DNA from: Candidatus Poribacteria bacterium | GTDB taxonomy: Bacteria; Poribacteria; WGA-4E; WGA-3G | Length of the DNA: 64,000 bases | Assembly (NCBI GenBank): GCA_965197475.1 | Contig: CBDANF010000003.1 | Coordinates: forward strand, 2,679,223 to 2,743,222 | Direction: 5' to 3' | Shown: positions 8,177-63,758 of the stretch, piece by piece | Layout of the letters: every line of letters starts with the position of its first letter | Position numbering within the stretch: the stretch's first letter is position 1 | Position numbers and translations under genes: made by a program | Notes under the pieces: generated by a model | What the model was told of the DNA's origin: nothing | What the model saw: only the letters and a program-made list of their open reading frames with translations | The model's database searches: none

Positions 8177-11100
8177 TCACTTACGCTTTACCCAACCTAC
8201 GAACTCACTTGCTTTCGTCTCTGGAAGCGCATAGACTCCCCGCCGCACCCGGACGATCTCGCCTTCATCTAAAAGTTGTTTGAGCTGATTTCCTATCGCC
8301 TGAGGACTACTATCAATCGCTGCGACGAGTGATGATGTTGTTTTCTCTCGACCAGAGGCAAGAAGAAAGAGGATCTGCTCTCGGAAAGTAACGCGAGGAA
8401 TGTTACCACCCCGCAGCTCCTGCAACACACGGTTCGCTTGCCTTGAGGAGCATCCTAACACACGTTCCACTTCTTCCCTGCTGGATTCAGCAGTTAGGTT
8501 AGCCCGTTCCGCTTCAAAACGTTCACGTGTGCGGACGGTTTCCTCAAGTTTATGTAACCCACCAGCGATCTCAAAGTCTTCCCAGTCAAAAAGAAGTGTT
8601 TCCGGTCTATCAGTGATGTCCGGCAGTTCAATGTTGTTGAGCAGCATTACCGTTTTACCTTTCCTACGGTTCAGTCCAAAGTATCCGACAATCTGTGTGA
8701 GTAACCCCGCGATATTTTGATCATATACCCTTTGTATGCGTTCATCTATAAAGTAATCAGTCCACATTTCTTGAGACAACATTTCTCTTTCATAATTAAG
8801 CGGTTTTTCGTCGTTTCCAAACAACATTTGCGCGTGGTGGCAGAGTGTGTCTTGCGGCCAAAATGGCGTGCCGACTATCCATAAGACCTGGACAGCTTCA
8901 ATATGTGTCTCTATCTTGTGCAACTTTTTATAATCCGCTACAAAACAGACGTTCTGCTTTGCTGTCAGGTCCGCTAACGTATCAATAATTGGTGTATCTG
9001 TGGCAATCGCGTGTTTTATGCTCGGGTCTCTATCAATTTCTGCGCGGATACCTAAAAAGTAACGTTCTCCTAATTTAGACAACTCGGTAACGTCCGAGTT
9101 GAAATCATAGTTTAGAATTTCATGTAGCGATTTGCTATTTGTGCGGATCTGAAAAACGTTGTTACCTGGCACCCATGCTGTCGGTTCAACACGAATAACA
9201 TCCATTTCTTCATCCGGGAACACTTTGCGAAGCTGCTGATCGGAGAGGTATGTTGATATTAATAAGAGACGTTTGACGTTTGGATGCAGCTTGGGTGGTA
9301 TCCAAAACTTCAGATATTTATCGTCCCACTGCATCGGAGCATCAGCATCCCGCAGATAATGCGCAAAGAAACGCTGCAACTGATGCCAATACGTCCAATT
9401 TGGATCACGACAGACGGTGGGAAAAGAATCTATTTTCTCTACGGTTTGGAGATCCAGGATTCCTAATGCGGCGGCTTCTGCCATCTGCATCGGGATACAG
9501 ATATCCTCGTTAGGAGGTAAAGGTCGCGATTCGGAGATCGCTCCTACAGTAGGAGGTAAAGGTCGCGATTTGGAGATCGCTCGGACAGCTTCCCGACTGT
9601 GGAGTGGTAAAATGGGCAGCTCCATTGCGCGCAGTCTATCTTCAGCATTCGCGTCCAAAGGGATGTGTGCCGTTGCGCCGCCGTGAAAGTCAATTGCGTA
9701 ACGTGCTAATTCTGTTCCTGTTTTGGTGTCAACAATCCCGCGCGCCACAACTTTGCCCTGTACATTAATGTAACACATCTGTTGAATTATCTCAGCTGCG
9801 TGTTGTTGGAACGCTTCGACTACAGCGCGAACTGGTCCGACCGGATTACTATATGGGTTGCTTTGTGTTTCAATCGCATTCATTAAAGCTACGGCAAAGT
9901 TGCCCAAAACATTTCCCCGCCAGTTGACGACCCATTCCTCCACGACTTTTCTTGATAATCTATATTCGGGAAACAGGTAACTTATTGTTGTTATACGTTC
10001 ATCAATGATACAGATATGTTCCGGTTCATCAGTGGAACCCAATATCTGTTGTAACAGGTATGTGTATTGTGGATCCAGAAACAGTTTCCAGATTGACAAT
10101 ATTTGTGCGTTTGTGCGTTGCAATGCAAGCGGTTGTGATAGATACCCGCGTTCTTGGCATGCTGTCCAAACGGGACACTGTGGACAGATACTTTCACTTG
10201 CATTGCCACCCTTTTCCTCAAACGCACTGAACCGCTCAGGATCCTCACACACATTGCCGTGTTGGAAGGGATTTGTCATGCGGACATCTACCGGTATATC
10301 TTTCACCTGCTCCCACTGGTGAAAGATATACCGCCTGCGGAAAAAAGAGGACAGTTTTTTTGATCGGTATCGTTGTTCTGTTGCTTCTGAGATATATGAG
10401 TCGGGTATATTTAGGCTGGTTGCATGGTTGTTCAAAAGATAGTCTTCTGTTTCGGTATTCGTTAATATATTTGCTTCGGTAGCCGTGAGTGCGAGAACAC
10501 GTGTCCCGCGCTTCAAGATACGTTGTAGCTGCGCTGAATGCTGTTGTAGTGTTTTATGGACCTTTGGTGGTGTCTGCTGCTTTTGAAGTTTCGGCGGCAA
10601 ACGTTTTATTGCCAATGGACTTAAGTGTCCCTCCCGAATGACGAGTATTTTTTCGTTGATAGGTGTTGGCATCGAAATGCCGGTGTCATCCCATATAGCT
10701 GTTATTGGCACAGCATATATTGGAAACTCGGTATTTGGTGTAGCCGCGCGCACCCATACAATGTCCTGGTCCTCCCATAGCGACACGTACACATCGTTGT
10801 GCGTCCAGTAGTGAAAACCGTTTGCTTCTCGTTCATAAGAAAAACCACGTTTCAAAAACGCTTCTTTCGCAAGATCAAGATTTTCTGAACCAAGGGATGG
10901 TAGGGCAGCGGTATCAGTTTTTAGTGCGTCTTTTAGGAATTTTTCTTGAGGTGATTCAGGTGCGTGAAGTGCAGCACGGAGGCTATTAATAGGTGCAAAA
11001 ATCACCTCTTTGGCGATGATAGGTGGCACTAACAGATTACCAAGCAGAATCTCATACCGCATATCCCAGCGGCTGTAACCCTCGTTCCCACGTAATTCCA

Positions 11101-11689
11101 AGTAAATGTCCCGGTGGTTCGGGTTTTCTGGCGTTGGCTTGTGCTTATAGATGAAAAATTTTGCTTCATCGGTGTTCGGATGCAGGTAATCTTGGATTCG
11201 GCAAGTGAACCGAAGTCCGCCGGATTTTGTTATCGTCAACAATGGGGCGGCAGTCGTGTTAATGAGTGCTTCAATACAAGTAGAAACAGCTTCTGGTTCG
11301 GCACAAATCGCGTCATATTTAAATTCAAAGTCGTGCCATCGCGCACTATCACGTTGGGAGGGGATGCCGGTATATATCTGAATTCCCCATGAGGCATACC
11401 ACTGTTTCATTCGCCAATCTTCAGCACTTTGCCGCTTCAAGAACCTATCACCACCAAAATCTCGTGGACCTTGATCGTTTTCAGGCGCATGGCCTATCGG
11501 CATAAAGGAGATATCTGCATTCTCAAGTTCATCAAGTGTCAACGGATTGCTGCGTACACAATGCACCTTAATGCAATACCGAAAACGTTTGTATAATGCT
11601 GTTGTTACCACTGTTCTGCGTTGCCGAAGTGATTCTCTTTCTGCATGCCGTTGGTGACAACGTTCAAAAATATCTTCTAAAACTTTCAT
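8177..11689 (-). CDS. Large orphan protein: AEP/PrimPol-like N-terminal domain, Cys-cluster, C-terminal winged-helix DNA-binding domain
   Basis: This is an uninterrupted 1170-aa ORF. The N-terminal ~240 aa follow the primase-polymerase motif order (WGIQIYTG ... WHDFEF ... TITKSGGLRFTCR ... IYLELRGNEGYSRWD). A Cys cluster sits mid-protein (CEDP...CPQCPVWTAC). The C-terminus LVAAIDSSPQAIGNQLKQLLDEGEIVRVRRGVYALP looks like MarR-type wHTH. The last residues (EFVGWVKRK) run into a REP family 2 copy. Function is not established. Confidence 0.5.
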   Translation of the reverse strand: MKVLEDIFERCHQRHAERESLRQRRTVVTTALYKRFRYCIKVHCVRSNPLTLDELENADISFMPIGHAPENDQGPRDFGGDRFLKRQSAEDWRMKQWYASWGIQIYTGIPSQRDSARWHDFEFKYDAICAEPEAVSTCIEALINTTAAPLLTITKSGGLRFTCRIQDYLHPNTDEAKFFIYKHKPTPENPNHRDIYLELRGNEGYSRWDMRYEILLGNLLVPPIIAKEVIFAPINSLRAALHAPESPQEKFLKDALKTDTAALPSLGSENLDLAKEAFLKRGFSYEREANGFHYWTHNDVYVSLWEDQDIVWVRAATPNTEFPIYAVPITAIWDDTGISMPTPINEKILVIREGHLSPLAIKRLPPKLQKQQTPPKVHKTLQQHSAQLQRILKRGTRVLALTATEANILTNTETEDYLLNNHATSLNIPDSYISEATEQRYRSKKLSSFFRRRYIFHQWEQVKDIPVDVRMTNPFQHGNVCEDPERFSAFEEKGGNASESICPQCPVWTACQERGYLSQPLALQRTNAQILSIWKLFLDPQYTYLLQQILGSTDEPEHICIIDERITTISYLFPEYRLSRKVVEEWVVNWRGNVLGNFAVALMNAIETQSNPYSNPVGPVRAVVEAFQQHAAEIIQQMCYINVQGKVVARGIVDTKTGTELARYAIDFHGGATAHIPLDANAEDRLRAMELPILPLHSREAVRAISKSRPLPPTVGAISESRPLPPNEDICIPMQMAEAAALGILDLQTVEKIDSFPTVCRDPNWTYWHQLQRFFAHYLRDADAPMQWDDKYLKFWIPPKLHPNVKRLLLISTYLSDQQLRKVFPDEEMDVIRVEPTAWVPGNNVFQIRTNSKSLHEILNYDFNSDVTELSKLGERYFLGIRAEIDRDPSIKHAIATDTPIIDTLADLTAKQNVCFVADYKKLHKIETHIEAVQVLWIVGTPFWPQDTLCHHAQMLFGNDEKPLNYEREMLSQEMWTDYFIDERIQRVYDQNIAGLLTQIVGYFGLNRRKGKTVMLLNNIELPDITDRPETLLFDWEDFEIAGGLHKLEETVRTRERFEAERANLTAESSREEVERVLGCSSRQANRVLQELRGGNIPRVTFREQILFLLASGREKTTSSLVAAIDSSPQAIGNQLKQLLDEGEIVRVRRGVYALPETKASEFVGWVKRK
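9511..9588. repeat. In-frame 39-bp tandem duplication (x2) inside the 1170-aa gene
   Basis: taggaggtaaaggtcgcgattcggagatcgctcctacag is followed by a near-identical copy. This encodes the protein repeat ISKSRPLPPTVG / ISESRPLPPNED. The unit ends in the ...ctcctacag motif seen in intergenic REP elements. Confidence 0.8.
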
Positions 11690-11766
11690 GATGTCCGCCT
11701 TTTCCTACTGTAGGGTGGGTAAAGTGTAACGTAGATATTTTTGTGGGAGGCGTTTTGAACGCCGAT

Positions 11767-13163
11767 ACTTTCTTGTATAGGACGGACGCATTTTCTCTTA
11801 AAGTCCCCCTGCATAAGGGGGACTTAGGGGGTTAAAAACACGGAAATAACGATTTTGAACTGCGGGATGGACGCATAAGTGGTAGAATCCTTGATGGCAT
11901 CTGCCAGTTTAACCCCCTAACCCCCTTATCAAGGGGGAATGCGTCCGTCCTTTTAACCCCCCTAACCCCCCTTATCAAGGGGGAATGCGTCCGTCCTGTT
12001 GTACTACCTTACTTTCTTGTATAGGACGGACGCATTTTCTCTTAAAATCCCCCTGATAAGGGGGACTTAGGGGGTTAAAAACACGGAAATAACGATTTTG
12101 AACTGCGGGATGGACGCATAAGTGGTAGAATCCTTGATGGCATCTGCCAGTTTAACCCCCCTAACCCCCCTTATCAAGGGGGAATGCGTCCGTCCTTTTA
12201 ACCCCCCTAACCCCCCTTATCAAGGGGGAATGCGTCCGTCCTTTTAACCCCCCTAACCCCCCTTATCAAGGGGGAATGCGTCCGTCCTGTTGTACTACCT
12301 TACTTTCTTGTATAGGACGGACGCATTTTCTCTTAAAATCCCCCTGATAAGGGGGACTTAGGGGGTTAAAAACACGGAAATAACGATTTTGAACTGCGAG
12401 ATGGACGCATAAGTGGTAGAATCCTTGATGGCATCTGCCAGTCTAACCCCCCTAACCCCCCTTATCAAGGGGGAATGCGTCCGTCCTTTTAACCCCCCTA
12501 ACCCCCCTTATCAAGGGGGAATGCGTCCGTCCTTTTAACCCCCCTAACCCCCTATCAAGGGGGAATGCGTCCGTCCTTTTAACCCCCCTTATCAAGGGGG
12601 AATGCGTCCGTCCTGTTGTACTACCTTACTTTCTTGTACAGGACGGACGCATTTTCTCTTAAAATCCCCCTGATAAGGGGGACTTAGGGGGTTAAAAACA
12701 CGGCAATAACGACTTTGAACTGCGAGATGGACGCATAAGTGGTAGAATCCTTGATGGCATCTGCCAGTCTAACCCCCCTAACCCCCCTTATCAAGGGGGA
12801 ATGCGTCCGTCCTTTTAACCCCCCTAACCCCCCTTATCAAGGGGGAATGCGTCCGTCCTGTTGTACTACCTTACTTTCTTGTATAGGACGGACGCATTTT
12901 CTCTTAAAATCCCCCTGATAAGGGGGACTTAGGGGGTTAAAAACACGGAAATAACGATTTTGAACTGCGAGATGGACGCATAAGTGGTAGAATCCTTGAT
13001 GGCATCTGCCAGTCTAACCCCCCTAACCCCCCTTATCAAGGGGGAATGCGTCCGTCCTTTTAACCCCCCTAACCCCCCTTATCAAGGGGGAATGCGTCCG
13101 TCCTTTTAACCCCCCTAACCCCCCTTATCAAGGGGGAATGCGTCCGTCCTGTTGTACTACCTT
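11767..13163. repeat. Nested tandem repeat array: 5 macro-units (244-326 bp), each with 2-4 copies of a ~46-bp hairpin sub-repeat (14 in total)
   Basis: Macro-units start at 11767, 12011, 12302, 12628 and 12873. Each has a left arm ggacggacgcatt..ccccctgataaggggg..agggggttaaaa and a ~73-bp near-invariant core. It then carries n copies of ttaacccccctaaccccccttatcaagggggaatgcgtccgtcct (n = 2,3,4,2,3) and a linker gttgtactaccttactttcttgtata. There are no unique spacers. Confidence 0.95.
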
Positions 13164-13582
13164 TAAATTGACACCTATAGGCAAAGCGTAAGCGAAACCC
13201 GTGAAATGCACGTGTGGCATTCCGCCCGTATGGTATTCTGCATGATTCATCCAAATCAACGCTGAATGCGCGTTCGGTTTCCGGACCGAACCGCATTCGG
13301 TGCTAACAGGGATATTTAACCAACTTCTTACATGTTCTTGTGCGTTGATGTGGACAAAAGCTACACGCAAAATCATGCAGAATACCAAACGCGCATTCTG
13401 TCACGCGGTTGTCGGCAGAGAAACCCAAGGACTCCCCTACAATGTTAAACAAGGCGAAATGCCAAATTAACACCGATTCCCCTATAATGTGATAAATTGC
13501 TGAGTTTCCGGTTGTTCCAACTAACTTATAGACTGTTGATCGGTAAGCTTAGGCAAGTATACCTACCGTCGTCTTATATCTT

Positions 13583-13704
13583 CAGGACTTACGCATTCCC
13601 CCCTTGATAAGGGGGTTAGGGGGTTAAATAGGCAGAATTTGGTGCTTTTAACCCCCTAAATCCCCCTTATCAGTGGGACTTTTAAACACATTGCGTAAGT
13701 CCTG
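13583..13704. repeat. MITE-like palindromic element, family 1 (TIR CAGGACTTACGCA)
   Basis: It starts caggacttacgcatt and ends ttgcgtaagtcctg. The interior ccccttgataaggggg-ttaggggg-ttaaa is mirrored on the right arm. Sibling copies lie at 22625-22745 and 26085-26206. Confidence 0.8.
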
Positions 13705-13974
13705 ATCTTATAGTAAAATCTGTAATTATCTGGACACTGCTGTAGCGTCCACTTTCAGTTTGCGCAAGGACGACACAAACTAAAAGTTTGTGCTACAAAA
13801 TATGCGGTAGGAACTGTTTCCCAACTGGACCGATAACAATGTCCAAGTAATTCTAAAATCTACTATAATATATTAACACAAAACCTAATTTTTATCAAGG
13901 TTTTTACATTTATGGTGAATTAACGTGAGCTCGGTGTCCGAGATGTGAATTTTTTAATTCTTGAATTCTACTTT

Positions 13975-46088: not shown

Positions 46089-47114
46089 TTATGACAGTAA
46101 TTCATTTATTGTTATTAATTGGGGATTAAATTTTTCGAAACCCAATGGTGTAAGTTTTAATTTATTCATATATTCATAGTTTATATTTTTGCATATTTCT
46201 ATTAAGTCTTTATCGTCTGAAGCAAAAATATCACAGAATGGCAAGTGTAATATGTATCTTATATCTCTTGTAAAATTTGTGCCTTTAGTTTGTATGATAA
46301 ATTTGCATTTTTCTATATTGAAATACAGAAAATATATATAGTAGCAGAAAAAAGTATAAGGGTATCTTTGGCTTATTTTTATGTTGTTGTTAATTGTTTC
46401 TTTTATCTCTTGTGTTTCTTTTTCTGTTAGTTTTGCGATTGGTGCTATTGCATTAATGCTGTTTGTTGTATTTCTGTTAAAAATAGTTTCTATGTCTATT
46501 ATTAATGCATGAAACATTTTTTGCATTATTTCTTTTTTAAATTTCTTATCATTGTTTTTGATATTGTCCCTAATAAATTTTATCAAATCATTATTTATAT
46601 TTTCATCGCCGTATTTTAATAAGTATTTTTGTAGTTTTTCAATATACCTTTTTTGATTTATGCGTGGGTCTCCTAATTGGCCTATTATTTCAGCAAATTC
46701 AATTATATAATTAGAGGCTTGATTGTTTTCGAAAAACTTTTTTAAAATTTCAAATATCTTTTCTTCTTCTTCAAATTGTTGTTTGGCATACTGGTTCAGG
46801 TTTTTGATTTCACGTTTTAAATCTTCTGTTTCACCTATTTGGGCATAAGTCATTTTCGTTATCGGTATATTTTCTATAATTTCTTTTTTTATTATTTCTG
46901 GTGTTGTATCATAACATACATGGTATTCTAATCTTATTTTTGATTGAATAAATTCATCTATTTTTTCTTTGCCATATTTTATTGATCCTATTAATAATTC
47001 AAAACTCAGTATAGGACTATACCTAATATCATATAACGAATGTAAAAAACTAATTTCTTCTTGTTTTAGTGTTTGTAGCGACGATTTGTCTAATAGTAGT
47101 ATTTGTTTTCTCAT
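46089..47114 (-). CDS. AT-rich hypothetical protein, possible split PIN-like nuclease with a long helical insert
   Basis: I place the start at ATG 47112-47114 (MRKQILLLDKSS...), 4 nt after the MTase stop, rather than the overlapping track start at 47252. The N-terminus ILLLDKSSL...SFELL and C-terminus LHLPFCDIFASDDKDL resemble the first and last acidic PIN motifs, a low-confidence reading. A 60-nt spot count gave about 18% GC. Confidence 0.5.
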   Translation of the reverse strand: MRKQILLLDKSSLQTLKQEEISFLHSLYDIRYSPILSFELLIGSIKYGKEKIDEFIQSKIRLEYHVCYDTTPEIIKKEIIENIPITKMTYAQIGETEDLKREIKNLNQYAKQQFEEEEKIFEILKKFFENNQASNYIIEFAEIIGQLGDPRINQKRYIEKLQKYLLKYGDENINNDLIKFIRDNIKNNDKKFKKEIMQKMFHALIIDIETIFNRNTTNSINAIAPIAKLTEKETQEIKETINNNIKISQRYPYTFFCYYIYFLYFNIEKCKFIIQTKGTNFTRDIRYILHLPFCDIFASDDKDLIEICKNINYEYMNKLKLTPLGFEKFNPQLITINELLS

Positions 47115-47118
47115 GTGA

Positions 47119-48483
47119 TTACAACACTCCTTGCTCTTTAAGTTTAGCAATAAGTTCTGCCTGCGTTCCAGTGCCTTTAGTAGAATTACAAGCCCCACAG
47201 AGAAGTTGCAAGTTATCCTTGTGGTCTGTGCCACCGTGTTTTTGTGGGACAATATGATCTACAGTCAAATTACGGAATGGAAAATGAGTTCGGCAGCCAT
47301 TGCAGACACCTTCCTGTTTACCATAAAGTGTGTGTTTGTGGGTTTGGTAATTAGGCAATTTCTCACTGCGCTTGGGTATATCGGTTCGGTGTGTTACATC
47401 ATAAAACATTCCAAGTTCTTTCTTAAGACGCATTTTGACAAGTTCTACGGCTTTTTCTGATATATCAATACCGATCCACTGACGGTTTAGACGCTCTGCT
47501 GCCACGCAGGTTGTTGCACAACCGCAGAAGGGGTCTAATACCATATCACCTTCTTTTGATGATGCCTTGATTATCCGTTCTAATAATGCTAATGGTTTTT
47601 GTGTGGGGTAGCCTGTTTTTTCGTTTCCTAATACTGGCTGTATATCTGTCCATAAATTATTTGCTGGCATTCCTTCCTTTAAACGGTGTTTACGATATAC
47701 TTTTCCGTTGGCAAAATCAAGTTCACCTTCTTCATCTAATTTTTGTAGTGTTGATTTTTTTACAGTCCATCCGCTTGGGTTTGGCGGATAAAATCCTTTA
47801 TATTCATAGCAAAGATTTGGACGCTCTCCTAATCCAGGAGGTCTGAATGGATTTCGTCTTTCATATTTTCCTTTTTCATCTTTAAATTTGAATTTTTTTA
47901 GATATTCTTCACTGAATGGAATAAGGTCTGAATTTATATCAAATTTACTATTATGATATGCGTAATATAGAATTTGGTCTGTTGACGTGCCGTATGATTT
48001 TTCTTTATACTGTGTTGTTTTACCTGCTCCCTGTATGCGTTGCCAAACAATTTCATTTCTAAAGTTTTCTTTACCAAAAACACTATCCATAAGAATTTTT
48101 AGATAGTGACTTGCTGTTGGATCACAATGAAGGTATATACTTCCTGTATCTTTCAAAACACGTTTCATCTCAAGCAGGCGGATTGACATCATTATTAGAT
48201 ATGATTTCATTCCCTTTCCGTGTGTTATTTCTGATGTCTGTATTGCCTGATATAAAGCGGGTTCACGGTCTGCGATTTCGCCGTGCCAAGCATTGTCAAC
48301 GTCTGATAGTGTCCACGTATCCTTAAACGCTGCACCAGCAGCTTCACTGCCAATTGGAGCTGCGTAATTTCGGTTGGAATTGAAAGGTGGATCAAGGTAT
48401 ATTAGATCTGCGGACTGGGTGTCCAAACCACGCAATATATGTAAATTATCATTACTAAAGATTGTACGATTATTAACATTCAT
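47119..48483 (-). CDS. DNA methyltransferase (beta-class N6A/N4C, PF01555-like) fused to a C-terminal HNH nuclease motif
   Basis: The 454-aa ORF has motif IV LIYLDPPFNSNRNY near the N-terminus and motif I VLDPFCGCATTCVAAE later. The C-terminus CNGCRTHF..LTVDHIVPQKHGGTDHKDNLQLLCGACNSTKG is a complete CxxC..H..N..H..CxxC HNH finger. Confidence 0.85.
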   Translation of the reverse strand: MNVNNRTIFSNDNLHILRGLDTQSADLIYLDPPFNSNRNYAAPIGSEAAGAAFKDTWTLSDVDNAWHGEIADREPALYQAIQTSEITHGKGMKSYLIMMSIRLLEMKRVLKDTGSIYLHCDPTASHYLKILMDSVFGKENFRNEIVWQRIQGAGKTTQYKEKSYGTSTDQILYYAYHNSKFDINSDLIPFSEEYLKKFKFKDEKGKYERRNPFRPPGLGERPNLCYEYKGFYPPNPSGWTVKKSTLQKLDEEGELDFANGKVYRKHRLKEGMPANNLWTDIQPVLGNEKTGYPTQKPLALLERIIKASSKEGDMVLDPFCGCATTCVAAERLNRQWIGIDISEKAVELVKMRLKKELGMFYDVTHRTDIPKRSEKLPNYQTHKHTLYGKQEGVCNGCRTHFPFRNLTVDHIVPQKHGGTDHKDNLQLLCGACNSTKGTGTQAELIAKLKEQGVL

Positions 48484-55291: not shown

Positions 55292-55656
55292 CTGATTTAC
55301 GAGATGCTCTCTACAATCAGTAATAATAGCAACTGAAAACCGAAACCGATAAAATGTCTTAGATTCTAAACAGCGAAACAATATCCCGTATTTTCCACAT
55401 TAAAATCAAGATGCCACCAAGCAGTATTAGATACCACACAATCATCGGTATTATCCGCTTTTTCTTAAAGAACGAACGGGATGGTCTCTTCTGTTCCATT
55501 ATATCGCTCCTTACGCTTATCTTGTTAGAAAGGATTGCACCTCAGACACTGTTGCGATTATGATAGCATATATCACGGAAAAATGTCAAATCCTATTCTG
55601 TGAATTTTCGTAACTTGCATTGCTATATTCTTCGTTATTATGGTATAATAACACCT

Positions 55657-56595
55657 ATGGAAAATCTTCTACTTGCTGAACATTCAGCTTCTCCATATCT
55701 GATTAATCCATCATTTTCAGGGCACCAAACCTTTCCGTTTCGGTATACGTGGCTAAAGAAGGGCGTTGATGCGGCGACAGAAGATCCAACGATCTTTTCA
55801 TCAGAATACGCTACTGTGACTTTAGGTGTCGGAAAAAACATGGTGGATTCTATTCGGCACTGGTGCAGCGTTGCAGGACTCATCAAAGCAGATTATCATC
55901 AACGCGGTCGATTCGTTCCCACTATCCTTGGCAAATCCATTTTTGATGACAAAAAAGGATTTGACCCGTACCTTGATGATCCTGCCACTTTGTGGTTGAT
56001 TCACTGGCAGATCACAACGAATATCAATCAGGCAACCGCGTGGTATTGGGCATTTAATATTCTAAAGAAAAATCAATTCATTCGTTCAACATTCATGAAA
56101 GAGTTGTACGAATGGGTACGACAACAGAAAGAATCCACGCCGCTTGCTTCTGACAACACACTTCAACGGGATGTTAATTGCTTTATCCGAACCTACTGCC
56201 AGTCACGTCACAGTGCTGCTGTAGTGGAAGAGACGTTTGACTGTCCACTCGTTGAACTCAACTTAATAGCTGAATTGCCAGATGGTGAAGGGTATGGATT
56301 CCAGCGCGGCGAAAAAGAGACGTTACCAATTGAGGTTGTTACCGCAACACTCATAGCCTTTTGGGATGTTCGTTTTTCCGAAAGGGACGCACTGTCTTTC
56401 ACAGACCTGATGTACGCCCCCTTAAGTCCAGGACGAATTTTCAGATTAGACGAAGACACGATGACGATATATCTTGAAAAACTTGAACAACTCACCGATG
56501 GCGCACTGCTATACGACGAAACCGCTGACCTGAAGCAGGTCTATCGATATAGAGATTTTAATCCGATGCAGGCTTTAAAGAGGTATTATGGGTAA
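55657..56595 (+). CDS. sspB: DUF4007-type protein, SspB-like (phosphorothioation-associated nickase family)
   Basis: The N-terminus PSFSGHQTFPFRYTWLKKGVD matches the hallmark DUF4007 opening motif (F-x-GH-x-TF-x-x-RY-x-WL-KK), recognised from memory. I prefer ATG 55657 to GTG 55600. An extended -10 (TGGTATAAT, 55641-55649) lies 7 nt upstream of this ATG, so the mRNA may be leaderless. Confidence 0.65.
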   Translation: MENLLLAEHSASPYLINPSFSGHQTFPFRYTWLKKGVDAATEDPTIFSSEYATVTLGVGKNMVDSIRHWCSVAGLIKADYHQRGRFVPTILGKSIFDDKKGFDPYLDDPATLWLIHWQITTNINQATAWYWAFNILKKNQFIRSTFMKELYEWVRQQKESTPLASDNTLQRDVNCFIRTYCQSRHSAAVVEETFDCPLVELNLIAELPDGEGYGFQRGEKETLPIEVVTATLIAFWDVRFSERDALSFTDLMYAPLSPGRIFRLDEDTMTIYLEKLEQLTDGALLYDETADLKQVYRYRDFNPMQALKRYYG

Positions 56596-59500
56596 CGTTC
56601 CGCTGTCAGATCTTTTTCATATAAAAGGTCGTTTTCGCCGCTCGGTGCACATTGAACGTGACTTCTATACAGAAAATGCCCTTGATGGATACGTTTTAAC
56701 TGTCACCGCGCGGGAAATGTTATCACGTCTCATTGCAACGTTTGAAAATGAGGCAACATCTAAAGCGTGGTCACTTACCGGTCCCTACGGGTCGGGCAAA
56801 TCAGCATTTGCACTCTTCGCCGCGAAACTGCTTGGCAATTCTGATGCCCGGACAACACAACAAGCTTTTGAAATACTAAAACGTGGAGATGCCTCGTTAT
56901 ATGAACGATTCATCAGCACAAACGGTGATGAAAAGCGGACACCCTCTGGATTCTGTCCAGTACTTATCTCAGGAGAACGTGCACCACTTTCACTCGCTCT
57001 TTTGCGCGGTTTAGATCGCGGAATCACCACATCCAACGGAACACAAATTTCTATTTCACTACGTCAAGAACTTGATAATCTGTTGGAAACAGTAGAAAAT
57101 GACTCCCTACCATCTGCTTCTGAAGTTACGCGCTTATTTGAATTAGCAACGCACGAGATTTGTGATGCGGGAGGCTCCGGTATGTTGCTCGTAGTTGACG
57201 AACTCGGAAAATTTCTTGAATACGCCACGCAACACCCGACACAAGGCGATATGTTTATCCTGCAGAGTCTCGCGGAATTGGCAGACCGAAGCAAGCGAAC
57301 CCCGCTGTTTCTAATGACCATCCTCCATCAAGCTTTTGACGTTTACGCACAGCGTACCGCGCAATCGCAACGCGAAGAATGGGCGAAGGTTCAAGGACGA
57401 TTTGAAGATGTTGTCTTTGCCGAACCTACAGAACAGGTACTCCGTTTAGTCGGTACGGCACTTGAGAAGTCCTCAGAAATTATTTGCAAAGATAACCTTA
57501 ACACCGCAGCCGAATTAGGACTTAAACCGCGCCAACTTGACGAGAGCGAATTCTCCCAACTGTTGGAGAGTTGTCTTCCGCTTCACCCAACCGTAGCACT
57601 TCTTATCGGACCACTTTTTCGACGATTCGCACAGAATGAACGTTCCCTCTTCGCTTTTCTCAGCTCAAGTGAACCGTACGGGTTACAAGATTTCCTTTCA
57701 AACCAACACTACGACGGGTACCGACTGCAGACGTTTTCGCTCGCGGACCTATACGACTACCTTAACGCTACGCAGGGCAATAAACTCTATGCTTCAAGAA
57801 ACAGCAAAAAGTGGGTAGAAATTGAATCCGCAATAGCGCACTTGTCAGACCCATCCGACATGACAGTTAAACTGATTAAGACTATTGGTTTACTCAGCAT
57901 CGTTAGTGAACCAATTCCTAACTTGAAAGCCTCAGAACAGCTGCTCCGTTACGCATTAGACGATGGCACAGAAGAATTTGCAACCGAATTTGCTGAAACA
58001 CTTGCAACACTGAAAAAACGATCAATCATTATCCACCGTCGGTACAACAACACTTACGGACTCTGGGAAGGGAGTGACATTGATATTGAGTCAAAACTCC
58101 GTGAGGCAGAAACACACGTTGACACGAAAATCGCCCTCGCTACGGACCTATCGCGCTACATGCCCACGCGCCCGCTCGTTGCAAGACGGCACCTGTTTCA
58201 AACAGGGACCCTGCGCTACTTCACTATTCGCTACACCGATTTTGAAAACTTTGATACAGACCTCAAAGAACCGATCGGTGATGCAGACGGACTCGTTCTC
58301 TATGCTTTGCCTGCAAATGAATATGAGGTTAAGCAGCTCGTTGAAAAGGCAGGCAACATTGACACCGCAGATCACAAAGAGGTGCTAATTGCAATCCCGC
58401 ATTCCATCGGTTTTCTGGATGATGCTGTCACGCAACTTGCATGTTTACACTGGATTACGGACAACATACCTGAACTTGAAAGCGATGCAGTCGCAAGGCG
58501 CGAACTCTCAATGCAGCAGGTTGAAGTTGAACGCGATATGTCCCGTCAGTTAACAACAATTTTTAGCGGAGATAAGGAAGACATCCGTATGTGGTATAGC
58601 AACGGTCAAACGGTAGATATTAACTCGCAACGTGTCCGAAACGCGCACTTGTCAAAAATCTGTGATGCGGTTTTTCACAAAACACCCCTCATTCGGAATG
58701 AACTTATCAATCGTCGTAAAATCTCTGGTGCTGCAACATCCGCACGCAAGAAATTAATTCAAGCCATGCTTGAAAACGGTGACAAAGAAAATCTCGGCAT
58801 CACTGGCTATCCAGCTGAAATGAGTATCTACCGATCCCTCTTATGGAATACGGGGATACACCGTCGGGTCTCTGGTGTTTGGGGGTTCCACCCACCAAAA
58901 GCAGATGATAAAAACAAAATAACGCACGTGTGGAATGCAATCGAAATATTTCTTGAGAAGTGTGAAAATAAACGTCAATCTGTCATAAAACTTTATGAGC
59001 GTCTGATGGTGCCGCCTTACGGTGTGCGAAATGGTCCGCTCCCCATTCTGTTGTGTGTTGCGATTTTCCATTACAGAACAGAAATCGCACTTTATGAAAA
59101 CGGTTCCTTTGTTGCGGATCTATCTGTCCCAGTCTTTGAACGGTTGCTTAAAGTACCAGAGCAATTTGAACTGAAGCGATTTCGGTTAGCGGGTATCCGC
59201 GCAGAGCTCTTTGCACAATTTTTGAAGATGCTCAACCAACCTACAGAAACCGAAAACCCGGATCTATTGACGGTGGTCACACCGTTGATGCGCTTTATTG
59301 GACGGCTCCCGAAGTACACTTTGGCAACCCAAACGTTGAGTGATGCGGCAAAAAGAACGCGTGATACCGTCAGAAATGCACGTGAACCTGACGAACTTCT
59401 CTTTAAGCAGTTACCGGAGTCGCTCGGATTTTCCGCTTTTACTGCAAAAGCAGCAGATTCAAAGACAGTTTCAGATTTTTTCAATACGTTACAAGGTGCC

Positions 59501-60070
59501 TTGTCCGAATTAGGAAGTGCTTACGACCAACTGCTAAACTCCCTTGAACAGATGCTCGCGGCAGCGTTCACATCCGAATCAAGCGCAGAAGAACTCCGCA
59601 CAGAATTAGCCACAAGAGCCGACCCCTTGTTAGAAGTAGCAATTGAGACGCAGCTCAAAGGATTTTTAATCCAAGTTTGCAGCGGCGGGCATGATCTCAC
59701 AAGTTGGATTGAGGCGATCGCAACCTTTCTCGCCAAAAAACCACCCGCATCTTGGATAGACACAGATAAGGCACAATTTGAGATTAATCTCTCTCAACTC
59801 GCAAGGAAATTCCGACATTTTGAAACGGTGTCCTATGAAAAACTACAACACACTGAATCGTCAGGCGAGACAATTCGGATAGGCATCACGACACCGAATG
59901 AACACGAACAGGAACGGGTTGTTAACTTAACTGACGAGGAACATGCCGATAAAATAGAACAAGCGATTACAAAAGTTTTTGATGATCTTGATGCAGACGG
60001 AAACCCCGAATTTCGTCTCGCTGTTTTAGCGCGAATCTCAAAAAAAATGATGCAAGAATTTGATAAATAA
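56588..60070 (+). CDS. sspC: Large P-loop NTPase, SspC-like
   Basis: The 1160-aa ORF starts inside the sspB-like stop region (8-nt overlap). Walker A is LTGPYGSGKSAF and Walker B is MLLVVDELGKFLEY. Its size and its position between a DUF4007 gene and a PAPS-reductase gene fit SspC. The assignment is by context plus motifs, not alignment. Confidence 0.55.
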   Translation: MGNVPLSDLFHIKGRFRRSVHIERDFYTENALDGYVLTVTAREMLSRLIATFENEATSKAWSLTGPYGSGKSAFALFAAKLLGNSDARTTQQAFEILKRGDASLYERFISTNGDEKRTPSGFCPVLISGERAPLSLALLRGLDRGITTSNGTQISISLRQELDNLLETVENDSLPSASEVTRLFELATHEICDAGGSGMLLVVDELGKFLEYATQHPTQGDMFILQSLAELADRSKRTPLFLMTILHQAFDVYAQRTAQSQREEWAKVQGRFEDVVFAEPTEQVLRLVGTALEKSSEIICKDNLNTAAELGLKPRQLDESEFSQLLESCLPLHPTVALLIGPLFRRFAQNERSLFAFLSSSEPYGLQDFLSNQHYDGYRLQTFSLADLYDYLNATQGNKLYASRNSKKWVEIESAIAHLSDPSDMTVKLIKTIGLLSIVSEPIPNLKASEQLLRYALDDGTEEFATEFAETLATLKKRSIIIHRRYNNTYGLWEGSDIDIESKLREAETHVDTKIALATDLSRYMPTRPLVARRHLFQTGTLRYFTIRYTDFENFDTDLKEPIGDADGLVLYALPANEYEVKQLVEKAGNIDTADHKEVLIAIPHSIGFLDDAVTQLACLHWITDNIPELESDAVARRELSMQQVEVERDMSRQLTTIFSGDKEDIRMWYSNGQTVDINSQRVRNAHLSKICDAVFHKTPLIRNELINRRKISGAATSARKKLIQAMLENGDKENLGITGYPAEMSIYRSLLWNTGIHRRVSGVWGFHPPKADDKNKITHVWNAIEIFLEKCENKRQSVIKLYERLMVPPYGVRNGPLPILLCVAIFHYRTEIALYENGSFVADLSVPVFERLLKVPEQFELKRFRLAGIRAELFAQFLKMLNQPTETENPDLLTVVTPLMRFIGRLPKYTLATQTLSDAAKRTRDTVRNAREPDELLFKQLPESLGFSAFTAKAADSKTVSDFFNTLQGALSELGSAYDQLLNSLEQMLAAAFTSESSAEELRTELATRADPLLEVAIETQLKGFLIQVCSGGHDLTSWIEAIATFLAKKPPASWIDTDKAQFEINLSQLARKFRHFETVSYEKLQHTESSGETIRIGITTPNEHEQERVVNLTDEEHADKIEQAITKVFDDLDADGNPEFRLAVLARISKKMMQEFDK

Positions 60071-60139
60071 CACTTGACTTATTTTAATTAACATGCTACA
60101 ATTAGAAAAAATATAACAGACCTAATTGGGAGGGACAGC

Positions 60140-60958
60140 ATGGCACAAAAAATACGTCATCTTCTCGGACTTTCGGGTGGAAAAGACAGCTCAGCACTTG
60201 CCGTTTACATGCGCGACAGAGTGCCAGAGATGGAATACTTTTTCACTGATACCGGTAAAGAATTGCCAGAGACTTACGATTTTTTGGACCGCCTTGAAGC
60301 GTTCCTCGGCAAACCGATCGCACGTCTCAACGTAGAACGCGATTTCGATCACTGGCTAACACTACACGGAGGCTTGCTACCATCTTCTCAAGTGCGTTGG
60401 TGTACCATCAAACTCAAAATAAGACCTTTTGAGGAATACGTCGGCGAAGATAAAGCGTTCCACTATATCGGTATCCGTGCTGACGAAGATCGTGCCGGCT
60501 ACAAACCGCTGAAAACGACCGCCCTCCAAAACATCATCCCTAAATACCCATTCAAAGAGGATGGCATCACCAAAGAGGACGTTTTCAGAATCCTTGAGGA
60601 AAGCGGACTCGGTTTGCCCGACTATTACAAGTGGCGAACACGTTCCGGGTGCTACTTCTGCTTCTTCCAACGTAAATCCGAATGGGTGGGTCTCTTAGAG
60701 CAACATCCCGACCTATTTGAACTTGCCAAAAGATACGAGAAATTCAGTCCAGAGACAGGCGAACGGTTCACGTGGAGTCAGGGTGAAAGCCTGGAGGAAT
60801 TAGCAGAACCAGAACGGATAGCAGAAATCAAGGCACGTACCGAACAGGCGAAAGTATCCAAAAAAACAGCAAAACCGAACCGTCGTCTGATAGAGATTTT
60901 GACCGATGTTCACGATGACGAAGATGATGAGGAGCCTTGTCTGGTGTGCCATAAGTGA
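60140..60958 (+). CDS. sspD: PAPS-reductase/PP-loop ATP pyrophosphatase, SspD/DndC-like
   Basis: The 272-aa ORF has a GGGAGG RBS and the PP-loop LSGGKDSSALAVYM. Conserved Cys residues (RWCT, SGCYFCFFQ, CLVCHK) are compatible with an Fe-S site. Confidence 0.7.
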   Translation: MAQKIRHLLGLSGGKDSSALAVYMRDRVPEMEYFFTDTGKELPETYDFLDRLEAFLGKPIARLNVERDFDHWLTLHGGLLPSSQVRWCTIKLKIRPFEEYVGEDKAFHYIGIRADEDRAGYKPLKTTALQNIIPKYPFKEDGITKEDVFRILEESGLGLPDYYKWRTRSGCYFCFFQRKSEWVGLLEQHPDLFELAKRYEKFSPETGERFTWSQGESLEELAEPERIAEIKARTEQAKVSKKTAKPNRRLIEILTDVHDDEDDEEPCLVCHK

Positions 60959-60975
60959 TATTGTGGAGATTACCA

Positions 60976-61869
60976 ATGCCTATGGATAGAGAGTTAATCA
61001 TTGAGAAATTTGATAACATTAGAATATGGAGACGAGGTGATGAAAGAGCACCTCACAAACCATTACTAATCCTATATGCGATAGGAAAATTGCTGCGCGA
61101 TGGGACTCGTCTTGTTCCATACGCTGAAATAGATGAAGGTCTTGGTAGATTATTACAAGAATTTGGACCTAGCCAAACAACACGAGGAACTGCGTATCCA
61201 TTTTGGAGGTTGCAAGGAGATGGTGTTTGGGAGGTGACCAACACCGAAAATATTACACCAAACACTGCGGGTGATGCCAGCAAAACAGATCTCCTTGAAA
61301 GTAACGTTTCTGGCGGCTTCCATGAAGAGATCATAGCGCAACTTCAAAATGATTCTACATTGTCTATTGAAATAGTTCAGATGATGTTGGACAAACACTT
61401 TCCAGATTCAATTCACAGTGAAATTTTACAAGCAGTTGACATTGAATTCCCTCCCCAAGTTTTTGAAACAAGAGAACGTTTTTCTAACTTCCGAAATAGT
61501 GTTTTAAAAGCCTATGAGTACAAATGTGCTGTCTGCGGCTTTGATGTGAAATTGGGTGCTATCTCAATCGCACTAGAGGCTTCTCATATCAAATGGAAAT
61601 CTCATAGTGGACCTAATAAAGAAGTGAATGGATTATGCCTCTGTGTTATGCATCATAAACTGTTTGACCTTGGGGCGTTCACGTTGTCCAAAGAACTACA
61701 CATCCTTGTTTCGGATGATGCACACGGAACAAAGGGACTCAAGGAGTCGCTTACGGATTTCCACAAAAAGAAAATCAATTTTCCGCAAAGGCAAATCTAT
61801 CTCCCCGACTTAGAATTTATCGGTTGGCATGTCAGAGAGGTGTTTAAGGGAGATTATAGGGAATTGTGA
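60976..61869 (+). CDS. HNH nuclease with N-terminal sulfur-binding-domain (SBD)-like module (ScoMcrA/SprMcrA-type PT-DNA reader)
   Basis: The ORF frame overlaps the sspD-like stop (track start GTG 60955; first ATG at 60976). The C-terminus is an HNH_2-type motif: CAVCGFDV...LEASHIKW...NGLCLCVMHHKLFDLGAF. The N-terminus has RAPHKPLLILYAIGKL followed 47 residues later by AYPFWRL. This fits the H-R ... Y-P sulfur-pocket residues I recall for the ScoMcrA SBD. The assignment is from memory and needs a profile or structure check. Confidence 0.55.
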   Translation: MPMDRELIIEKFDNIRIWRRGDERAPHKPLLILYAIGKLLRDGTRLVPYAEIDEGLGRLLQEFGPSQTTRGTAYPFWRLQGDGVWEVTNTENITPNTAGDASKTDLLESNVSGGFHEEIIAQLQNDSTLSIEIVQMMLDKHFPDSIHSEILQAVDIEFPPQVFETRERFSNFRNSVLKAYEYKCAVCGFDVKLGAISIALEASHIKWKSHSGPNKEVNGLCLCVMHHKLFDLGAFTLSKELHILVSDDAHGTKGLKESLTDFHKKKINFPQRQIYLPDLEFIGWHVREVFKGDYREL

Positions 61870-61895: not shown

Positions 61896-63758
61896 ATGAA
61901 ACTTACAAAAGTACGTATAACGAATTTTCAGAGCATTCAGAATTCAACCGAGTTTGATATTGACGATGTCACTTGTTTAGTAGGAAAAAATGAGGCTGGC
62001 AAGACTGCGTTATTAAAAGCACTGTACCGCTTGAATCCAATCAACGAATCGGACGGCAATTTTAATGTCACGGATGATTATCCGCGCCAAACTATGAATG
62101 CCTACGAAGATTCTATTTTAGATGGTGAAGACCACGCAGAGGTTGTTCATGCTACCTACATGCTTGAACCCGAGGACATAAGCATTGCCAGAGAATTTCT
62201 TGGGTCTGAATACCCTGAAGACGAAATCCCAACCATCACCCTTCGTAAAGGATATTCAAACAAACTTTTCTACGGTGGATTGGGTATTGGCAGTAGCGAA
62301 TATACATACAATGACTTGAGCGAAGATGCTGACGAAAATACTTACTATGGCTTGTCTCCGAACGCTCCAGCCGTTTTGAATCAACTTGTTGATCGTATTC
62401 CCAAATTCCTTTATTTCGATGAGTACTATCAGATGAAAGGACAGGATAACATTGAAACACTCAGACAGCGTGTTGCAAGTGATTCACTTGAAGAACCAGA
62501 CCATCCATTACTTGGGTTAATTCAACTTGCGGGTCTCGATCTTGACCAGATTATTAATACACGTCAAACGGAATCCTTAATTGCGAAGTTAGAAGGAGCA
62601 GGAAACTTTCTTACTCAAAAAGTACTTCCTTATTGGTCCCAAAACCAACACCTTCGGATGAAATTTGAAATCCGTCCTGGACAACCTGAAGATCCGCAAG
62701 GTATGACTAGTGGAACAAACATCTGGGGGCGCGTAGAAGACACCAAACACTATGTTACCACTGCACTTAGAACTCGATCTCGCGGTTTTGTCTGGTTCTT
62801 TTCTTTTCTCGCTTGGTACCACAAAATTCGCAAGGAAAACGAAAATCTCATATTACTCTTGGACGAACCAGGACTCTTCCTTCATGCAAAAGCCCAAGGC
62901 GATCTACTCCACTACTTTGAAAAAGAACTGATCCCACATCACCAACTTATCTACACAACTCACTCACCGTTTATGGTTGATCCGGGACATTTCGATCGTG
63001 TAAGAATTGTCCAAGATTTGAGCATTGAAGCGAATTCTGATAATTTATCTGAAGAGGAACAAGGGACAAAAGTTATTACTGAAGTGCTTGATGCAATACC
63101 TGACAGTCTTTTTCCACTTCAGAGTGCCCTCGGTTACGAGATTACTCAGACACTTTTTATCGGCCCCAACAATCTCATCGTTGAGGGAGTATCTGACTTA
63201 CTGTACATTGAAACCATCTCTACACTTCTTCAGACACGAGGTAAAGATGGTTTGAGTTCCGATTGGACTATTATGCCTGTTGGCGGTTCTGACAAGGTTT
63301 TTACATTCGTTTCACTGATTGGTGCTCAGAAGGATTTGAATATTGCCGTTCTTATTGACTTTCAGAAGAAAGATCAGCAAAGAATTGAAAACCTATACAA
63401 GACGAAATTACTTAAACAGAAAAAAGTTCTCACTTACGCAGCCTTTGTGCAGGGTAATGAAGCAGATATTGAGGATATGTTTGATCCTAACTTTTATTTA
63501 AAGTTAGTAAATAGCGTATTTGAGACATCTTTAACTACAAATGATTTGCCAAAAGGCACGCGTATCATCCGTCGTCTTGAAAACTACTTTGAGAATAATC
63601 CTATTTCTAACGACGTAAAGTTTAACCATTACAGACCTGCTTTCTATTTGAGCAAGAACCTCCAATCACTTGAGAACGATTTAACTGATCCACAGCTTGA
63701 TCGTTTCCAAAAAGCCTTTGATGTTCTGAATAAATTGCTTGTTACTCAGTCTACATAA
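61896..63758 (+). CDS. OLD-family ATP-dependent nuclease (ABC-type ATPase + TOPRIM)
   Basis: The 620-aa ORF opens with MKLTKVRITNFQSIQ...LVGKNEAGKTALLKAL (Walker A). Walker B and D-loop are LILLLDEPGLFLHAKAQ, and the H-loop is IYTTHSPF. The C-terminal TOPRIM-like motifs are NLIVEGVSDLLYIE, PVGGSDKV and AVLIDFQKKD. Confidence 0.75.
   Translation: MKLTKVRITNFQSIQNSTEFDIDDVTCLVGKNEAGKTALLKALYRLNPINESDGNFNVTDDYPRQTMNAYEDSILDGEDHAEVVHATYMLEPEDISIAREFLGSEYPEDEIPTITLRKGYSNKLFYGGLGIGSSEYTYNDLSEDADENTYYGLSPNAPAVLNQLVDRIPKFLYFDEYYQMKGQDNIETLRQRVASDSLEEPDHPLLGLIQLAGLDLDQIINTRQTESLIAKLEGAGNFLTQKVLPYWSQNQHLRMKFEIRPGQPEDPQGMTSGTNIWGRVEDTKHYVTTALRTRSRGFVWFFSFLAWYHKIRKENENLILLLDEPGLFLHAKAQGDLLHYFEKELIPHHQLIYTTHSPFMVDPGHFDRVRIVQDLSIEANSDNLSEEEQGTKVITEVLDAIPDSLFPLQSALGYEITQTLFIGPNNLIVEGVSDLLYIETISTLLQTRGKDGLSSDWTIMPVGGSDKVFTFVSLIGAQKDLNIAVLIDFQKKDQQRIENLYKTKLLKQKKVLTYAAFVQGNEADIEDMFDPNFYLKLVNSVFETSLTTNDLPKGTRIIRRLENYFENNPISNDVKFNHYRPAFYLSKNLQSLENDLTDPQLDRFQKAFDVLNKLLVTQST

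Follow-up and report, generated by a model that had tools for sequence, protein, structure and literature searches.

A predicted sulfur-binding HNH nuclease gene linked to the phosphorothioation gene sspD in Candidatus Poribacteria

The window analysed here is a stretch of 64,000 nt from a Candidatus Poribacteria genome (GenBank assembly GCA_965197475.1, contig CBDANF010000003.1, positions 2,679,223 to 2,743,222 of the forward strand). Between positions 55600 and 63758 it carries five closely packed genes on the same strand: sspB, sspC and sspD, which encode an Ssp phosphorothioate (PT) writer, a gene for a predicted PT reader composed of a sulfur-binding domain (SBD) and an HNH nuclease domain, and a gene of the OLD family. 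The analysis showed that the linkage of the SBD-HNH gene to the writer genes is real and conserved across relatives. The unit kept by selection is sspD together with the SBD-HNH gene, often accompanied by sspC, and not the whole writer. We tentatively consider the SBD-HNH protein to serve a PT module centred on SspD as its cognate nuclease, and not to be an accidental antagonist, although our confidence in this reading stays somewhat below even.

The SBD-HNH protein and its gene

The protein was matched over the full length of the NCBIfam profile NF045808, "phosphorothioated DNA-binding restriction endonuclease", with 345.6 bits against a cut-off of 180 (E-value 1.7e-103; residues 16-298 on profile positions 4-284 of 284), and a phmmer search of the PDB matched the SBD of ScoMcrA at E 2e-10. 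The two matches therefore indicate homology and not a chance resemblance. Sequence and profile searches of the PDB returned the SBDs of ScoMcrA (5ZMO), SprMcrA (7CC9) and Hga (8H0L) as well as the HNH domain of TagI. In the AlphaFold2 model, residues 1-158 had a predicted local distance difference test score (pLDDT) of 80-94, and the Foldseek search with this N-terminal part gave chain A of 5ZMO (E 2.6e-9, template modelling score (TM) 0.82, root-mean-square deviation 2.3 Å), 7CCJ (TM 0.81) and 8H0L. The 15 best hits were without exception SBD entries of ScoMcrA, SprMcrA or Hga, and the fold search ruled out an SRA/EVE or a generic winged helix-turn-helix (wHTH) domain in place of an SBD. The SBD-HNH identity proposed in the preliminary description of this stretch was upheld by the profile matches, by the alignment to solved structures and by the fold comparison, in which the N-terminal model superposes on the SBDs of ScoMcrA and SprMcrA.

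The open reading frame (ORF) encodes a predicted two-domain SBD-HNH enzyme of the SprMcrA/EcoWI kind. It agrees with these enzymes in length (about 300 aa), SBD fold, HK...YP pocket and HNH_2 core, and also in the G-D of the base-reading loop. Those enzymes stand alone in PT-free hosts, whereas the window's gene lies 17-23 nt behind sspD, inside a cluster of PT-writer genes. Homologues from E. coli, Klebsiella and Methylibium that carry the NF045808 product name are 39-42% identical to it over the full length; the proteobacterial homologues (~40% identity) stand alone in defence islands, and some of them, in the same three taxa, are plasmid-borne. ScoMcrA (head-SBD-SRA-HNH; 5ZMM, 5ZMO) is alike in its SBD, whereas its head and SRA domains are missing from the protein of the window.

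Residue conservation was followed in a homologue set of 82 loci, 80 from species-representative genomes and two from metagenome assemblies, each taken with 10 kb on either side where the contig allowed. The RAPHKP and AYPFW motifs, from which the sulfur-binding pocket had been proposed, were both found, and the tyrosine lies exactly 47 residues after the histidine (48 in ScoMcrA, from H116 to Y164). The pocket pattern H-K-P...P is kept in nearly all of the loci: H-K-P (residues 27-29 counted from ATG 60976, or 25-27 from ATG 60982) in 79 of the 82, and both its histidine and the pocket proline (P75) in every one of them. The lid residue varies (Y/F/D/H/Q/L). H116, R117, Y164 and P165 of ScoMcrA correspond to H, K, Y and P in the window's protein, and lysine, the residue that most often replaces R117 in nature, is functional there (PMC6224610).

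In SprMcrA, the H102-G103-D104 loop reads bases, with H102 contacting the guanine 5' of the PT link (PMC7470945). The window's protein has alanine in place of this histidine, and across the clade the loop reads S/A/G-G-D, the glycine and the aspartate (G99 and D100) being conserved. Because of this replacement, the PT context read by the clade probably differs from that of SprMcrA. Likewise, T-A-G-D-A is found in place of the guanine-reading SRGRR loop of ScoMcrA. No PT sequence specificity can be deduced from the loop residues.

The HNH_2 core was matched by Pfam PF13391 (E 1.6e-10) and by the HNH domain of TagI in the PDB (E 1e-5). The finger had been described as apparently intact, and it is so: the codons for H, N and H stand at 61585-87, 61627-29 and 61651-56, together with three conserved cysteines, and C184, C187, H204, N218, C223, H226 and H227 are invariant in the homologue alignment. 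The AlphaFold2 model of this half has a pLDDT of ~35 and is unusable; the HNH call comes from the sequence only. An inactivated reader in the ssp-linked copies was ruled out, since 81 of the 82 copies retain pocket and catalytic residues (all of the catalytic residues, and the pocket residues in nearly all of the 81).

The mechanical longest ORF opens at GTG 60955, ends with the stop at 61869 and encodes 304 aa on the + strand. Its overlap with the stop codon of sspD (GTGA) had led the preliminary description to propose translational coupling. However, GTG 60955 is the start of the mechanical longest ORF only: 33 homologues begin with M-D/N-R-E, equivalent to a start at ATG 60982, or two codons before it, at ATG 60976. 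Across 22 related loci, 9-64 nt (in most cases 15-19 nt) separate the stop codon of sspD from the ATG of the HNH gene. The homologue N-termini, the GGAG box in front of the gene (Table 1) and the spacers in relatives rule out a coupling based on overlap, and because of them the two genes are described as tightly linked and non-overlapping. They are probably carried on one transcript; translational coupling as such is neither shown nor excluded by the sequence.

Linkage to the writer genes, writer decay and selection

The nearest relatives of the window's locus come from Candidatus Poribacteria genomes, which belong to sponge symbionts. The homologue loci were searched with the Ssp proteins of the window and with profile hidden Markov models (HMMs), and sspD was found within 10 kb in 40 of the 82, mostly in Poribacteria, in three arrangements. 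It lies directly upstream of the HNH gene in 22 loci. In another 10, sspD is upstream too, but an insert separates the two genes; in five of these (L007, L011, L012, L024, L062) the insert encodes a ~600-aa HATPase_c_3 protein with a weak MzaB-like match and a 162-aa protein with no family match. The third arrangement, HNH-sspB-sspC-sspD, is present in eight loci (L020, L049, L051, L054, L058, L063, L068, L074), all with intact ssp genes. The gene that follows sspD there is PbeA-like by HMM in L063 (707 aa, 664 bits), genes of similar size occupy the place in L049 and L051, and the one in L020 is NsnA/REase-like. In this arrangement the reader is accompanied by a complete writer and, at least in part of the loci, by a candidate PT-dependent restriction partner.

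SBD-HNH genes were also found beside dndABCDE in one Victivallales locus (L072) and, in a genome from Gemmatimonadetes (L004), together with a divergent Ssp system whose SspC is 30% identical. The latter locus and one from Latescibacterota (L005) have closely similar HNH genes, and the genes downstream are of the same sizes and orientations (positions 10001-13900). This likeness between metagenome-assembled genomes of different phyla points to horizontal transfer, and the genomes may share a host habitat. The place of sspD is taken in L005 by a protein that combines HATPase_c and HATPase_c_3 domains; a protein built in the same way comes after sspD in the canonical locus L097.

In the reverse scan, which started from SspD, an HNH gene was found downstream in 3 of 80 metagenome loci, namely the three closest (85-89% identical, sponge-type clade), while the other 77 showed the ordinary sspB-sspC-sspD order followed by DUF4007-like, helicase or HATPase genes. 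The SBD-HNH gene as a general feature of Ssp systems was ruled out by these 77 loci, and the pairing is therefore a lineage-specific variant of Ssp that recurs inside its lineage. The linkage of sspD and HNH is not due to chance.

The preliminary description spoke of a reader-nuclease co-expressed with a writer. In the comparative data, the partner that is conserved is sspD, in many cases with sspC, and not the writer as a whole; sspB is recurrently lost in the gene order of the window. None of the 21 informative relatives with sspD before HNH has sspB, sspC and sspD all intact. The sspB gene is absent from L004, L009, L052 and L073, and elsewhere six or more lesions have disrupted it independently: an insertion of 1 nt at codon 165 (L003), two TGG>TGA changes at codons 136 and 172, both at conserved Trp and both read here as nonsense under genetic code 11 (L010), differing frameshifts (L001, L008, L056) and a deletion leaving a remnant (L040). 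In further relatives sspC is broken or absent. The sspD-HNH pair was found without sspB and sspC in L002, L013, L018, L022, L026, L032 and L070 and in the metagenome contigs L083 and L084, all with a full upstream flank (10 kb in the first seven), as well as in L019, where this flank is only 944 nt. A third sponge-type contig, L085, has no sspB or sspC upstream and ends inside the HNH gene. A search for sspC elsewhere in the genomes with sspD-HNH only found none among ~220 close SspC homologues, which is a weak test. In no relative is sspD broken. The first lesions fell ~10 times on sspB, ~5 times on sspC and never on sspD, and sspC is a target 3.5 times larger.

Purifying selection acts on sspC, sspD and HNH. 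The ratio of non-synonymous to synonymous substitution rates (dN/dS) of sspD is 0.02-0.06, and 0.02-0.03 among the syntenic loci L002, L018 and L022, which have neither sspB nor sspC and in which sspD-HNH forms an islet between housekeeping genes in species that differ by dS ~1. Next to a dead sspB, sspC is a clean ORF of 1160 codons with a dN/dS of ~0.11 (0.21 for the close pair L040/L052). The HNH gene has a dN/dS of ~0.1, including the loci from which sspB and sspC are missing.

The distances of SspD and HNH are only weakly correlated (Mantel r 0.29). For SspD pairs 1-5% apart the HNH proteins differ by up to 39%, and for SspD pairs less than 12% apart by up to 49%. The allele of the reader has therefore changed again and again while the sspD next to it was conserved, the slot being refilled and not lost. 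Two different SBD-HNH genes stand in tandem behind sspD in L003 (10001-12005) and L025 (8733-10909); they are 50-53% identical to the window's protein and are consistent with allele turnover at the slot. The genes downstream of HNH also differ, being of the OLD family (window, L006, L052), TIR with PDC-S60, pAgo or DndB-like, a variability typical of a defence-island slot.

Possible roles of the nuclease

The SBD-HNH protein is read here, with due reserve, as the nuclease arm of an SspD-centred module because its operon position is kept, because it is associated with Ssp, divergent Ssp and Dnd systems and, according to the literature, with a BREX (bacteriophage exclusion) type 4 system, and because both genes are under selection. 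Beyond the domain identities and evolutionary patterns observed above, we infer PT binding, cleavage and self-tolerance for the window's enzyme. The SBD would dock on an Rp phosphorothioate through the pocket of H27/K28/P29 and Y74/P75, and the C-terminal HNH finger (H204, N218, H226/H227) would cleave the DNA near the bound PT. Its gene follows sspD on the same strand at a distance of 17-23 nt, and the enzyme would fill the slot usual for Ssp restriction partners, with a role like that of SspE in Ssp, of the McrA gene in BREX type 4 and of the wHTH-SAD-HNH proteins in Dnd loci. It would read the PT made by its own partner. The host could survive this because sparse single-strand PT marks would give no licence for double-strand cutting, or because PT binding would park or gate the nuclease, as PT gates SspE. 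Non-overlapping contexts and self-recognition, two of the solutions offered in the preliminary description, are both still viable, and the sequence cannot decide whether PT is a licence or a restraint. The third, an addiction module, finds little favour because stand-alone homologues are common.

A reader-nuclease next to a PT writer had been presented as a paradox. The linkage is real, and the paradox is not a new one: Lutz et al. 2020 and the studies PMC10853773 and PMC12914056 precede it. McrA-like readers in PT-writer loci are already known for Dnd and BREX type 4, and what is new here is the linkage to Ssp; its interest lies mainly in the sspD-HNH core and the natural deletion series. No report of an Ssp-linked SBD-HNH gene, of an sspD-HNH core or of recurrent sspB loss was found in the literature. 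Lutz et al. 2020 located fewer than 3.6% of the predicted PT-dependent enzymes near dnd genes and left SBD-HNH genes beside dnd clusters as unresolved outliers. Proteins with wHTH(SBD), SAD and HNH domains were described from 698 taxa whose Dnd loci encode them, and it was suggested that they are the cognate restriction components (Aravind laboratory, Nucleic Acids Research 2024, PMC10853773). They resemble the present case in that a putative PT-reading HNH nuclease lies directly downstream of PT-modification genes. Unlike here, the writer is of the Dnd type (DndC/D/E), the reader has an extra SAD/SRA domain, and no recurrent loss of the DNA-recognition subunit was described in that study.

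In Bacteroides salyersiae, the BREX type 4 operon has the order brxP-mcrA-brxC-brxZ-brxL; mcrA is dispensable for PT synthesis and was treated by the authors as a restriction part (Nature Communications 2026, PMC12914056). There, too, the PAPS-reductase gene, which belongs to a proven PT writer, is followed at once by an McrA-like gene, BrxP being the equivalent of an SspD-SspB fusion. In contrast, the window has no BrxZ or BrxL according to PADLOC, and its sspB and sspD are separate genes; the B. salyersiae McrA is likened here by gene position. SspE, which combines a DUF262 GTPase with a DUF1524 HNH-like nickase, shares with the window's protein the slot after sspD and the fusion of a PT-sensing module to an HNH-type nuclease. 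However, its sensor domain is unrelated, and Pfam, PADLOC and NCBIfam gave no DUF262/GTPase match in the window's protein. This resemblance would be a functional analogy, with no sequence sign of homology.

Several points weigh against the protein being a cognate arm. In ~38 of the 82 loci (Caldilineaceae, Desulfobacterales, Bacillota and others), no ssp gene lies within 10 kb, and some of these HNH genes adjoin BrxD-like and SNF2 genes. Because of these loci and of the stand-alone proteobacterial homologues, a linked writer is not needed by the enzyme. The HNH gene is intact where sspB and sspC have been lost, which should not be the case for a strictly PT-dependent effector unless PT can still be written when SspB is missing. 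The HNH-sspBCD loci have a PbeA-like restriction partner as well. Moreover, every characterised member of the family cleaves PT-DNA and works by itself in hosts that lack PT (PMC6224610, PMC7461809), and those of the window's clade are predicted enzymes.

The enzyme may instead be an independent classical type IV nuclease, directed against foreign PT in contexts unlike the host's single-strand Ssp mark, and its adjacency to ssp may reflect a compatible pair co-inherited in a defence island. We consider this unlikely, though worth serious thought. Stand-alone homologues exist in many phyla and on plasmids of E. coli, Klebsiella and Methylibium, and the SBDs of SprMcrA and ScoMcrA do not bind CpsCA (PMC7470945). 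The lack of the guanine-reading histidine, the variation of loop and lid residue between alleles and the intact HNH gene beside broken writers point the same way, and allele exchange is what is expected of an arms-race gene. However, such an enzyme leaves unexplained the sspD spacing of 9-64 nt in 22 species, the purifying selection on sspD in L002, L018 and L022 (0.02-0.03) and on sspC after the loss of sspB, and the presence of McrA-like genes in three PT-writer families.

It is distinctly unlikely, in our estimation, that sspD and the SBD-HNH gene, with or without sspC, make up an autonomous PT module. In such a module, the SBD-HNH protein would replace SspB and both help to write the mark and read it, or SspD would mark the DNA and the linked reader would cut it, PT meaning 'cut here'. 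This would account jointly for the repeated loss of sspB, for the absence of sspD loss and for the persistence of two-gene islets over dS ~1.

A genetic conflict, in which the reader recognises the mark of the linked writer and an active writer is counter-selected, appears improbable. The intact genes of the window would then represent a rare, unstable or recently assembled state. The absence of a fully intact writer from all 21 informative relatives agrees with this, as do the independent lesions of sspB and its absence from four loci, and the fact that the writer is intact in all eight loci with HNH upstream of sspBCD, at least some of which have a PbeA-like partner. Yet any loss of function would end PT writing, and the lesions favour sspB over the larger sspC and never strike sspD. 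The purifying selection that still acts on sspC and sspD and the window's own intact genes also speak against a conflict, and the same eight HNH-sspBCD loci indicate that stable coexistence is possible.

Another improbable reading is that the SBD-HNH protein, as a winged helix joined to a nicking nuclease, took over the DNA-recognition and nicking role of SspB, leaving remodelled SspC-SspD-HNH or SspD-HNH machines. The order sspC-sspD-HNH without an SspB-like ORF is found in three Poribacteria loci (L009, L052, L073) and, with the divergent SspC, in the Gemmatimonadetes locus L004; SspC remains under selection in loci without SspB, and the sspD-HNH islets have persisted between housekeeping genes. 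SprMcrA deprived of its SBD is a non-specific nickase (PMC7461809). Against this stands the dispensability of mcrA for PT synthesis in BREX type 4, though BrxP keeps a DUF4007 domain there (PMC12914056). No SBD-HNH enzyme is known as a helper in PT writing, so that the replacement has no biochemical precedent, and sspB and sspC may be encoded at another place in those genomes, the evidence against that being weak.

Why PT-reading 'type IV' nucleases occur inside PT-writer loci is an unsettled question on which this locus bears, and for 83.9% of sspBCD clusters no restriction partner is known (PMC8092258). The loci form a natural series (sspB-sspC-sspD-HNH, sspC-sspD-HNH, sspD-HNH and HNH-sspB-sspC-sspD-Pbe), throughout which reader and sulfur transferase stay together, while the subunit for DNA recognition can be dispensed with. 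The series makes it testable whether the SBD-HNH protein is the missing Ssp effector, a compatible independent type IV enzyme or a substitute for SspB. It also suggests that sponge symbionts have many SBD alleles to offer whose reading loops differ and which could be of use for PT-mapping enzymes.

Layout of the locus and neighbouring genes

The features of the locus are listed in Table 1. In the window, sspB, sspC and sspD are adjacent, full length, on one strand and all intact. SspB matched Pfam DUF4007 with 290.5 bits over profile positions 1-288 of 288 and the PADLOC SspB model with 323 bits; its true start is probably ATG ~55657. SspC matched its PADLOC model over the full length (1128 bits) and has GSGKS as Walker A. 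SspD was identified by PADLOC (390 bits) and by a Pfam PAPS_reduct match, and it matched BrxP weakly (43.7 bits, PADLOC). Its motifs SGGKDS, RWCT and CYFC and the C-terminal CxxC are kept in all relatives. As to the cysteine desulfurase SspA, the three genes directly upstream of sspB encode ABC-transporter components, and IscS often acts in trans (PMC8092258).

Table 1. Features of the ssp and SBD-HNH locus, in coordinates of the window
Feature	Position	Strand	Description
sspB	55600..56595	+	DUF4007; DNA-recognition and nickase subunit of the Ssp writer; intact
sspC	56588..60070	+	BrxC/PglY-like P-loop ATPase; intact; 8-nt overlap with sspB
Promoter-like site TTGACT-17-TACAAT with TG	60074..60102	+	Within the sspC-sspD gap
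sspD	60140..60958	+	PAPS-reductase-like PP-loop sulfur transferase; intact
Spacer sspD-HNH	60959..60975	+	17 nt; GGAG box at 60964-60967
SBD-HNH gene	60976..61869	+	297 aa from ATG 60976; 295 aa from ATG 60982
Sulfur-binding domain (winged-helix type)	60976..61449	+	Residues 1 to ~158
Pocket codons H27-K28-P29	61054..61062	+	H27 = ScoMcrA H116; K28 = R117; P29 follows the R117 position
Codons Y74-P75	61195..61200	+	ScoMcrA Y164 (lid) and P165 (pocket floor)
Base-reading loop A98-G99-D100	61267..61275	+	SprMcrA H102-G103-D104
HNH_2 nuclease core	61525..61686	+	CxxC...H204...N218...C223..H226-H227 (297-aa numbering)
OLD-family ATPase-TOPRIM nuclease gene	61896..63758	+	26 nt past the HNH stop

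The gap between sspC and sspD measures 69 nt in the window and 260-870 nt in relatives. In L001 this spacer (8659-9142) contains a BrnT-like toxin gene and a small adjoining ORF, which is presumably the antitoxin. A terminator-like hairpin was noted inside the 3' end of sspC (within 59995-60102, + strand). The promoter-like site may be an internal start for the sspD-HNH unit, on weak evidence, as a promoter and terminator scan of the region gave site counts not above those of shuffled controls. Together, the hairpin, the promoter-like site and the wide gaps in relatives suggest that sspD and HNH form a transcription unit of their own.

The two genes after sspD in the window gave no match to the SspE and SspFGH models; the window stops 242 nt past the second of them, the OLD-family gene. 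This gene matched Pfam AAA_15 and AAA_21, weakly an OLD-like TOPRIM, and the Old and AriA models of PADLOC. Among the relatives, its homologues (73-76% identical) lie downstream of HNH only in L052 and, disrupted, in L006. As a fixed component of the locus it was ruled out, being found in only three loci, and it is probably a variable neighbour and a separate defence gene.

A patch of low G + C content (0.31 against ~0.45) lies elsewhere in the window, at 46089-48483 on the - strand. It contains a gene for a DNA methyltransferase with a fused C-terminal HNH motif (47119-48483, -) and, beside it, an AT-rich ORF of 387 aa with no assigned function (46089-47252, -). The patch may be a separate, horizontally acquired island resembling a restriction-modification system.

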